64,000 nucleotides of DNA from assembly GCF_057098645.1 (NCBI RefSeq), contig NZ_CM169472.1; one strand, written 5' to 3'. The position numbers were made by a program, and so were the translations under genes. Shown here piece after piece: positions 51,759 through 54,830 of this stretch. The notes beneath the pieces were generated by a model. It had not been told where the DNA came from and did no database searches. It saw only the letters and a program-made list of their open reading frames with translations. Numbering within the stretch: the first letter of the stretch is position 1; each line of letters starts with the position of its first letter.

Positions 51759-53276
51759 ATGGCACAGATTGATTTCCGAAAAAAAATAAACTGGCATCGT
51801 CGTTACCGTTCACCGCAGGGCGTTAAAACCGAACATGAGATCCTGCGGATCTTTGAGAGCGATCGCGGGCGTATCATCAACTCTCCGGCAATTCGTCGTC
51901 TGCAACAAAAGACCCAGGTTTTTCCACTGGAGCGCAATGCCGCCGTGCGCACGCGTCTTACCCACTCGATGGAAGTCCAGCAGGTGGGGCGCTACATCGC
52001 CAAAGAAATTTTAAGCCGTCTGAAAGAGCTTAAATTGCTGGAAGCATACGGCCTGGATGAACTGACCGGACCTTTTGAAAGCATTGTTGAGATGTCATGC
52101 CTGATGCACGATATCGGCAATCCGCCGTTTGGTCATTTTGGCGAAGCAGCGATAAATGACTGGTTTCGCCAGCGTTTATACCCGGAAGATGCCGAAAGCC
52201 AGCCTCTGACTGACGATCGCTGCAGCGTGGCGGCACTACGTTTACGGGACGGGGAAGAACCGCTTAACGAGCTGCGGCGCAAGATTCGTCAGGACTTATG
52301 TCATTTTGAGGGGAATGCACAAGGCATTCGTCTGGTGCATACATTGATGAGGATGAATCTCACTTGGGCACAGGTTGGCGGTATTTTAAAATATACCCGT
52401 CCGGCGTGGTGGCGTGGCGAAACGCCTGAGACACATCACTATTTAATGAAAAAGCCGGGTTATTATCTTTCTGAAGAAGCCTATATTGCCCGGTTGCGTA
52501 AAGAACTTAATTTGGCGCTTTACAGTCGTTTTCCATTAACGTGGATTATGGAAGCTGCCGACGACATCTCCTATTGTGTGGCAGACCTTGAAGATGCGGT
52601 AGAGAAAAGAATATTTACCGTTGAGCAGCTTTATCATCATTTGCACGAAGCGTGGGGCCAGCATGAGAAAGGTTCGCTCTTTTCGCTAGTGGTTGAAAAT
52701 GCCTGGGAAAAATCACGCTCAAATAGTTTAAGCCGCAGTACGGAAGATCAGTTTTTTATGTATTTACGGGTAAACACCCTAAATAAACTGGTACCCTACG
52801 CAGCACAACGATTTATTGATAATCTGCCTGCGATTTTCGCCGGAACGTTTAATCATGCATTATTGGAAGATGCCAGCGAATGCAGCGATCTTCTTAAGCT
52901 ATATAAAAATGTCGCTGTAAAACATGTGTTTAGCCATCCAGATGTCGAGCAGCTTGAATTGCAGGGCTATCGGGTCATTAGCGGATTATTAGAGATTTAT
53001 CGTCCTTTATTAAGCCTGTCGTTATCAGACTTTACTGAACTGGTAGAAAAAGAACGGGTGAAACGTTTCCCTATTGAAACGCGCTTATTCCACAAACTCT
53101 CGACGCGCCATCGGCTGGCCTATGTCGAGGCTGTCAGTAAATTACCGTCAGATTCTCCTGAGTTTCCGCTATGGGAATATTATTACCGTTGCCGCCTGCT
53201 GCAGGATTATATCAGCGGTATGACCGACCTCTATGCGTGGGATGAATACCGACGTCTGATGGCCGTAGAACAATAA
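51759..53276 (+). CDS. dgt: Deoxyguanosinetriphosphate triphosphohydrolase
   Basis: 505-aa [60 protein letters not shown]... with an HD-domain motif ([10 protein letters not shown]). Confidence 0.95.
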
Positions 53277-53332
53277 CCAGGCTTTTGTAAAGACGAACAA
53301 TAAATTTTTACCTTTTGCAGAAACTTTAGTTC

Positions 53333-53360
53333 GGAACTTCGCGCTATAAAACGAATCTGA
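53333..53360 (+). promoter_or_regulatory. Sigma-E (RpoE)-type promoter for degP
   Basis: -35 GGAACTT (53333-53339), 16-nt spacer, -10 TCTGA (53356-53360); fits the sigma-E consensus GGAACTT-N16-TCNAA and sits about 45 bp upstream of the degP start. Confidence 0.6.
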
Positions 53361-53405
53361 AGAACACAGCAATTTTGCGTTATCTGTTAATCGAGACTGA
53401 AATAC

Positions 53406-54830
53406 ATGAAAAAAACCACATTAGCACTGAGTGCACTGGCTCTGAGTTTAGGTTTGGCGTTATCTCCGCTCTCTGCAACGGCGGCTGAGACTTCTTCAGC
53501 AACGACAGCCCAGCAGATGCCAAGCCTTGCACCGATGCTCGAAAAGGTGATGCCTTCAGTGGTCAGCATTAACGTAGAAGGTAGCACAACCGTTAATACG
53601 CCGCGTATGCCGCGTAATTTCCAGCAGTTCTTCGGTGATGATTCTCCGTTCTGCCAGGAAGGTTCTCCGTTCCAGAGCTCTCCGTTCTGCCAGGGCGGCC
53701 AGGGCGGTAATGGTGGCGGCCAGCAACAGAAATTCATGGCGCTGGGTTCCGGCGTCATCATTGATGCCGATAAAGGCTATGTCGTCACCAACAACCACGT
53801 TGTTGATAACGCGACGGTCATTAAAGTTCAACTGAGCGATGGCCGTAAGTTCGACGCGAAGATGGTTGGCAAAGATCCGCGCTCTGATATCGCGTTGATC
53901 CAAATCCAGAACCCGAAAAACCTGACCGCAATTAAGATGGCGGATTCTGATGCACTGCGCGTGGGTGATTACACCGTAGCGATTGGTAACCCGTTTGGTT
54001 TGGGCGAGACGGTAACTTCCGGGATTGTCTCTGCGCTGGGGCGTAGCGGCCTGAATGCCGAAAACTACGAAAACTTCATCCAGACCGATGCAGCGATCAA
54101 CCGTGGTAACTCCGGTGGTGCGCTGGTTAACCTGAACGGTGAACTGATCGGTATCAACACCGCGATCCTCGCACCGGACGGCGGCAACATCGGTATCGGT
54201 TTTGCTATCCCGAGCAACATGGTGAAAAACCTGACCTCGCAGATGGTGGAATACGGCCAGGTGAAACGCGGTGAGCTGGGTATTATGGGGACTGAGCTGA
54301 ACTCCGAACTGGCGAAAGCGATGAAAGTTGACGCCCAGCGCGGTGCTTTCGTAAGCCAGGTTCTGCCTAACTCCTCCGCTGCAAAAGCGGGCATTAAAGC
54401 GGGGGATGTGATCACCTCACTGAACGGTAAGCCGATCAGCAGCTTTGCCGCACTGCGTGCTCAGGTGGGTACTATGCCGGTGGGCAGCAAACTGACCCTG
54501 GGCTTACTGCGCGACGGTAAGCAGGTTAACGTGAACCTGGAACTGCAGCAGAGCAGCCAGAATCAGGTTGATTCCAGCTCCATCTTCAACGGCATTGAAG
54601 GCGCTGAGATGAGCAACAAAGGCAAAGATCAGGGCGTGGTAGTGAACAACGTGAAAACGGGCACTCCGGCTGCGCAGATCGGCCTGAAGAAAGGTGATGT
54701 GATTATTGGCGCGAACCAGCAGGCAGTGAAAAACATCGCTGAACTGCGTAAAGTTCTCGACAGCAAACCGTCTGTGCTGGCACTGAACATTCAGCGCGGC
54801 GACAGCACCATCTACCTGTTAATGCAGTAA
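53406..54830 (+). CDS. degP: Periplasmic serine endoprotease/chaperone DegP (HtrA)
   Basis: 474-aa ORF with signal peptide MKKTTLALSALALSLGLALSPLSATA, catalytic GNSGGAL motif and two C-terminal PDZ domains. Confidence 0.96.
   Translation: MKKTTLALSALALSLGLALSPLSATAAETSSATTAQQMPSLAPMLEKVMPSVVSINVEGSTTVNTPRMPRNFQQFFGDDSPFCQEGSPFQSSPFCQGGQGGNGGGQQQKFMALGSGVIIDADKGYVVTNNHVVDNATVIKVQLSDGRKFDAKMVGKDPRSDIALIQIQNPKNLTAIKMADSDALRVGDYTVAIGNPFGLGETVTSGIVSALGRSGLNAENYENFIQTDAAINRGNSGGALVNLNGELIGINTAILAPDGGNIGIGFAIPSNMVKNLTSQMVEYGQVKRGELGIMGTELNSELAKAMKVDAQRGAFVSQVLPNSSAAKAGIKAGDVITSLNGKPISSFAALRAQVGTMPVGSKLTLGLLRDGKQVNVNLELQQSSQNQVDSSSIFNGIEGAEMSNKGKDQGVVVNNVKTGTPAAQIGLKKGDVIIGANQQAVKNIAELRKVLDSKPSVLALNIQRGDSTIYLLMQ

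Follow-up and report, generated by a model that had tools for sequence, protein, structure and literature searches.

A sigma-E promoter with an upstream CpxR-like block and a fourU leader at the degP (htrA) locus of Escherichia coli

The site at 53333-53360 on the + strand of the analyzed DNA is almost certainly the sigma-E (RpoE, sigma-24)-dependent promoter of E. coli degP/htrA. It is an already known, well-characterized promoter, with known CpxR and RNA thermometer companions. Its -35 element and spacer agree fully with the sigma-E consensus. Its position and orientation towards degP are those expected, and its two boxes are preserved across Enterobacteriaceae. The regulation of the gene by sigma-E is documented in the literature.

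Results

Locus and Identity of the DNA

The window, which is the whole 64-kb stretch of DNA analyzed here, is E. coli chromosome, and the locus is dgt-degP. The dgt-degP intergenic region differs from that of K-12 MG1655 (NC_000913.3, 180600-181000) only at two adjacent bases of the promoter spacer, and the promoter is thus the published degP (htrA) promoter. Window coordinates are converted to K-12 coordinates by adding 127478.

In the RefSeq annotation of identical DNA, dgt ends here and degP, named "serine endoprotease DegP", begins. Against NCBIfam NF008189, "serine endoprotease DegP", whose cut-off is 720, the DegP protein reaches 935 bits. The neighboring proteins are also above their NCBIfam equivalog cut-offs (dGTPase, 895 bits; CdaR, 835 bits). 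The 401 nt around the promoter show at least 99% identity in 5424 of 5426 complete E. coli genomes. Three of the 5424 dgt-degP matches lie on plasmid-labelled records, and two of the 5426 genomes have no match; these cases may be assembly or labelling oddities.

Two other features of the window were noted. A 67-aa ORF on the minus strand (53169-53372) overlaps the 3' end of dgt and the promoter, and was treated as spurious. A match to t44 RNA (Rfam RF00127, 82.9 bits) is located at 62282-62368 on the + strand; t44 is the known leader element upstream of rpsB.

Promoter Motif

The promoter context, as read from the sequence, is ...ttcGGAACTTcgcgctataaaacgaaTCTGAagaacacagcaa... and contains the following features.

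53333-53339, + strand: -35 element GGAACTT, 7/7 to the sigma-E consensus (PMC1312014)
53340-53355, + strand: 16-nt spacer CGCGCTATAAAACGAA, of optimal length, with a central A/T-rich TATAAAA
53356-53360, + strand: -10 element TCTGA, read from the sequence; T, C and the final A are consensus
53366, + strand: putative transcription start A (alternative C53367), from geometry, the Salmonella UTR and the Rfam boundary
53406-54830, + strand: degP (htrA) coding sequence, 474 aa, from the ORF, NF008189 (935 bits) and the RefSeq annotation

Between TCTGA and the degP ATG at 53406 there are 45 nt (53361-53405). The positions of both elements and the distance of about 45 bp are as the original prediction had given them.

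The promoters rpoH P3 and degP were the source of the older sigma-E consensus, GAACTT-N16-TCTGA. Since the TCTGA of that consensus derives partly from degP itself, the close match to consensus claimed in the original prediction is partly circular. The comparison was also made with the modern consensus. In Rhodius et al. 2006 (PMC1312014), 28 sigma-E-dependent starts mapped by 5' RACE give GGAACTT at -35 and TCAAA at -10, with a spacer of 15-19 nt in which 16 is strongly preferred. Against this standard the claim stands for GGAACTT (7/7) and for the 16-nt spacer. For the -10 element it needs a small qualification, as TCTGA agrees with TCAAA at only three of five positions (T, C and the final A). 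As judged from the sequence, the degP site also fits the modern sigma-E model.

Generic E. coli sigma-E promoters, such as rpoH P3, rpoE P2 and others, have GGAACTT, the 16-nt spacer and a TC-initiated -10 element in common with degP. They also resemble it in the A/T-rich upstream DNA and, for the predicted start, in the 5/6-nt discriminator. PMC1312014 describes A/T-rich upstream DNA as typical of sigma-E promoters with an UP-like A/T peak at -57/-58. An A/T-rich central spacer is a further noted sigma-E feature (PMC3326320). Unlike the generic promoters, degP has TCTGA instead of TCAAA and an added, putatively CpxR-responsive upstream block. The model of sigma-E promoter strength in vivo also has degP as an outlier (PMC3326320), which is consistent with an extra activator.

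The exact pattern GGAACTT-N16-TCTGA occurs once in the 64-kb window when both strands are counted, against 0.02 expected from dinucleotide shuffles; it turned up in two of 100 such shuffles. A relaxed sigma-E pattern was defined by at most one mismatch in the -35 element, a spacer of 15-17 nt and TCNNA. This pattern is not enriched in the window (5 observed, 6.4 +/- 2.2 expected), and as it occurs at chance frequency, the loose motif alone is weak and non-diagnostic evidence. Among the relaxed matches, the degP site alone combines an exact sequence with an intergenic position and the correct orientation towards a gene, and the relaxed scan found no other credible sigma-E site in the whole window. 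What lifts the degP site beyond chance is the exact match together with its position and its conservation. A second -35-like sequence, GAAACTT, is present at 53320-53326, 13 nt upstream of the real -35 element. This sequence was rejected, since no -10 partner follows it at 15-17 nt.

Conservation of the Promoter across Enterobacteriaceae

A scan with the DegP protein, limited to one genome per species, yielded 80 loci from about 25 genera of Enterobacteriaceae with 83-100% protein identity. For the footprint, 78 distinct upstream sequences including the window were aligned over the 140 nt before the start codon. Conservation was expressed as the mean identity to the window base for each segment, as follows (78 sequences).

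dgt end and first intergenic bases: 0.48-0.51
Block 53285-53315: 0.91
53316-53332: 0.61
-35 element: 0.97, with GAACT invariant in 78/78
Spacer: 0.81
-10 element: 0.95, with TC and the final A at 0.97-1.0
Discriminator: 0.51

The -35 element is GGAACTT in 60 of the 78 sequences, GGAACTA in 12 and TGAACTT in 6. At -10, TCTGA predominates (66 sequences), followed by TCTTA (7), TCTCA (3) and TCTAT (2). The spacer is 16 nt long in 73 sequences and 17 nt long in five. The general form (G/T)GAACT(T/A)-16/17-TC..A thus precedes degP in all 78 regions, two of which carry TCTAT. A footprint of this form is what a functional promoter with two boxes at a fixed distance should leave in the alignment.

Within E. 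coli, positions 53341-53342 are dimorphic, with GC in the window and AG in K-12. This is the only difference between the window and K-12 degPp; the -35 and -10 elements, the spacer length, the CpxR-like block and the 5' UTR are all identical. Of 5424 complete E. coli genomes, 4024 share the 45-mer at 53326-53370 without change and the other 1400 show one or two differences; the window allele is thus the majority form. Two sampled minority genomes have the K-12-type AG spacer with unchanged -35 and -10 elements. Because GC is the common state in other genera, the AG spacer of K-12 looks derived.

In many genera, about seven extra bases (e.g., TAGTCAC) are found between TCTGA and the conserved ACACAGCAA. 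The carriers include Klebsiella, Kluyvera, Kosakonia, Atlantibacter, Franconibacter and others (L012, L021, L023, L027, L044, L070, L077 and others). The distance from the -10 element to the ATG is 50-53 nt in these genera instead of 45. Given the extra bases, the leader there would either be longer or start inside the insert.

Transcription Start

The degP transcript probably starts at about A53366. According to PMC1312014, sigma-E promoters have a discriminator of 5 or 6 nt, a distance of 25-28 nt (mostly 26 or 27) from the -35 element to +1, and a purine start. A53366 is a purine with a 5-nt discriminator, 26 nt from the -35 element; for C53367 the values are 6 and 27. The standard Salmonella htrA mRNA has a 40-nt 5' UTR (PMC5602114). 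The distance from the motif to the ATG is equal in Salmonella (L013) and in the window, and a 40-nt UTR leads to 53366. The alignment with the Rfam model RF02700, whose first position is the Salmonella start site, also begins exactly at 53366.

A tagRNA-seq study bears on the same ends. In it (PMC7075262), an earlier reported degP 5' end is classed as a processing site, in a stretch with 28 consecutive tagged nucleotides, and degP starts at K-12 180840/42 are proposed. These correspond to window positions 53362/53364, which lie 2-4 nt upstream of 53366 and would leave a discriminator of 1-3 nt. The same study describes the degP 5' end as responding to sigma-E induction like bona fide sigma-E starts.

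The original prediction had placed the start near 53367, within about 10 nt downstream of 53360. The geometry gives A53366 or C53367, the Salmonella UTR and the Rfam boundary both fall at 53366, and all candidate starts, published or inferred (53362-53367), are inside that limit.

Upstream Block and CpxR-like Box

The region upstream of the -35 element contains a second conserved element.

53285-53315, + strand: nearly invariant block TTGTAAAGACGAACAATAAATTTTTACCTTT, -81 to -51 relative to A53366; identity 0.91 (n = 78)
53287-53304, + strand: CpxR-like box GTAAA-N8-ATAAA, -79 to -62; 9/10 to the CpxR~P consensus
53311-53307, inverted: GTAAA inside the block 53285-53315

The block is the best conserved non-coding stretch of the region and exceeds the adjoining coding end of dgt. 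TGTAAAG, CAATA and TTTAC inside it have an identity of 1.0 among the 78 sequences. A T5 tract at -61 to -57 adjoins the -57/-58 UP-element peak of sigma-E promoters, and from its sequence it could serve as an UP element.

The published CpxR~P consensus is GTAAA(N)4-8GTAAA, and this pattern within about 100 bp of the start site was taken to define a CpxR box. Loose forms of the pattern are common in the window (40 matches, versus 17 expected in random sequence). For this reason, the assignment to CpxR rests on the conservation and on the Cpx literature, not on the motif. The bases that CpxR would contact in this putative box are inferred from the sequence.

RNA Thermometer in the degP Leader

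53366-53411, + strand: predicted HtrA fourU RNA thermometer (Rfam RF02700), comprising the 5' UTR (53366-53405) and two codons

The degP leader scores 77 bits against RF02700, whose gathering score is 52, and covers the full model (1-46 of 46). The model length of 46 nt equals the 40-nt UTR plus the start codon and one further codon, which is the span of Figure 1 in PMC5602114. The E. coli leader departs from the model consensus at a few positions only. The same hairpin is seen in the minimum-free-energy fold, with an energy of -3 kcal/mol; its z-score is not significant, as is expected for a thermometer stem that is deliberately weak. The folded hairpin has a short upper stem, a bulged C and pairing between UUUUG and CGAGA, and as modelled it sequesters the Shine-Dalgarno GAGA.

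Salmonella enterica htrAp3 is closely similar. It has GGAACTT-16-TCTGA, the same distance to the ATG, the 40-nt UTR and the same thermometer hairpin as E. coli. Its score against RF02700 (L013) is 78 bits, versus 77 bits for the E. coli window. Substitutions separate Salmonella from the window at a small number of positions, located in the spacer, the discriminator and the loop of the hairpin. Experimental tests of the thermometer, with SHAPE data, were made in Salmonella (PMC5602114), and the literature consulted contained no such test in E. coli.

Among 20 diverse relatives, five (Salmonella, Citrobacter, Enterobacter, Intestinirhabdus and Kluyvera) pass the RF02700 threshold. As the promoter is found in 78/78 sequences and the thermometer threshold is passed by only 5/20, the promoter is older and more widely conserved than the thermometer.

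Discussion

Published Control of degP by Sigma-E and Cpx

The sigma-E and CpxR dependence described here is taken from literature on the K-12 allele, whose core elements are identical to those of the window. The htrA/degP gene was the second for which transcription by sigma-E/RpoE was demonstrated (review, PMC8103513), and DegP is a member of the core sigma-E regulon (PMC1312014). Upon rpoE overexpression, degP was the most strongly induced gene (56-fold; PMC2731931). Its promoter belongs to a strength library of 60 sigma-E promoters and counts there as one of the active basal promoters (PMC3326320). The view of degP as an envelope-stress gene under sigma-E, from which the original prediction started, is borne out by these reports.

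Cpx is the second input. A degP-lacZ fusion serves as a reporter of sigma-E plus Cpx (PMC2215328). The gene is up 26.6-fold in cpxA24, and NlpE overproduction raises it 32-fold, but only 6.4-fold in a cpxR mutant (PMC9600279). Overexpression of CpxR alone did not induce degP, for which the authors gave limiting sigma-E as the reason (PMC2731931). The original prediction was silent on this second regulator, and also on the RNA thermometer, whose 5' end coincides with the putative start.

In the proposed mechanism, the anti-sigma factor RseA is proteolysed when the envelope is stressed, for example by heat or by unfolded outer-membrane proteins, and sigma-E is released. RNA polymerase with sigma-E would recognize GGAACTT and TCTGA, 16 nt apart, and produce degP mRNA from about A53366. 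Phosphorylated CpxR, bound at the conserved block 53285-53315, would boost the same sigma-E promoter. The 40-nt leader, as a fourU RNA thermometer, would add temperature control of translation.

Alternative Explanations

It is very improbable that most degP transcription comes from upstream, as dgt read-through or from dgt-internal promoters comparable to Salmonella htrAp1/p2, with the 5' ends near 53366 being processing products. Several observations are in line with such a source. The stretch 53277-53332, which separates the stop codon of dgt (53274-53276) from the degP promoter, has no intrinsic-terminator-like hairpin, and the scan of 52800-53900 for sigma-70 promoters and terminators returned no terminator. 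In the absence of a terminator-like site, dgt transcripts may read into degP, and promoters far upstream may also contribute. In Salmonella, further far-upstream htrA promoters produce a 215-nt UTR (PMC5602114), and the tagRNA-seq study regards the degP 5' end reported earlier as a product of processing in a strongly transcribed stretch (PMC7075262). However, the sigma-E response of the degP 5' end in that same study and the 56-fold increase upon rpoE overexpression (PMC2731931) argue against read-through as the main source, and upstream promoters alone leave unexplained why the -35 and -10 elements are conserved far above the surrounding intergenic DNA. There is next to no probability that the motif is a chance resemblance whose conservation is due to another DNA-binding protein or to a constraint on RNA structure. 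The relaxed motif does occur at chance frequency in the window, but for the exact 12 bases at optimal spacing the expectation is only 0.02 per window. The site has the right distance and orientation to a gene experimentally known to be sigma-E-dependent, the spacer is 16-17 nt in 78/78 relatives, and the published sigma-E dependence of the K-12 promoter contradicts a chance origin. RNA structure cannot explain the conservation, because the site is upstream of the transcript.

The remaining alternative concerns an addition to the sigma-E promoter. The spacer sequence TATAAA (53345-53350) would be the -10 element of an overlapping sigma-70 promoter in which CpxR~P replaces the -35 element, adding sigma-E-independent, Cpx-driven transcription. 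TATAAA agrees with TATAAT at 5/6 positions and is conserved at 0.81-1.0 across Enterobacteriaceae, above the level stated for generic sigma-E spacers (PMC3326320). The two inputs are separable, as shown by the 6.4-fold induction by NlpE in the cpxR mutant and the strong induction in cpxA24 (PMC9600279), and the outlier status of degP in the strength model (PMC3326320) also fits this reading. These observations are countered by the sigma-70 scan, which called no + strand promoter, and by the 0/6 matches at the -35 position. Further, an A/T-rich central spacer is itself a sigma-E feature (PMC3326320), CpxR overexpression alone did not induce degP (PMC2731931), and the expected start at about 53357-53359 is none of the reported 5' ends. 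An overlapping promoter of this kind is improbable as an account of the site. The claim on its own, that TATAAA is a functional sigma-70 -10 element, with CpxR~P at -81 to -51 driving initiation without sigma-E from a point a few bases upstream of the one used by sigma-E, is improbable too. If it were true, the two envelope-stress pathways would act on two interleaved promoters, not on one shared promoter.

Implications

The assignment to the sigma-E promoter of degP serves as a positive control: reading of the raw sequence recovered a stress promoter already established by experiment, and its predicted start lies no more than one or two bases from the probable one. All three layers of control at this locus have been described before, and no open question is advanced. 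Together, they make the degP locus a case of compact layered control, in which an alternative sigma factor, a two-component activator and an RNA thermometer are combined.
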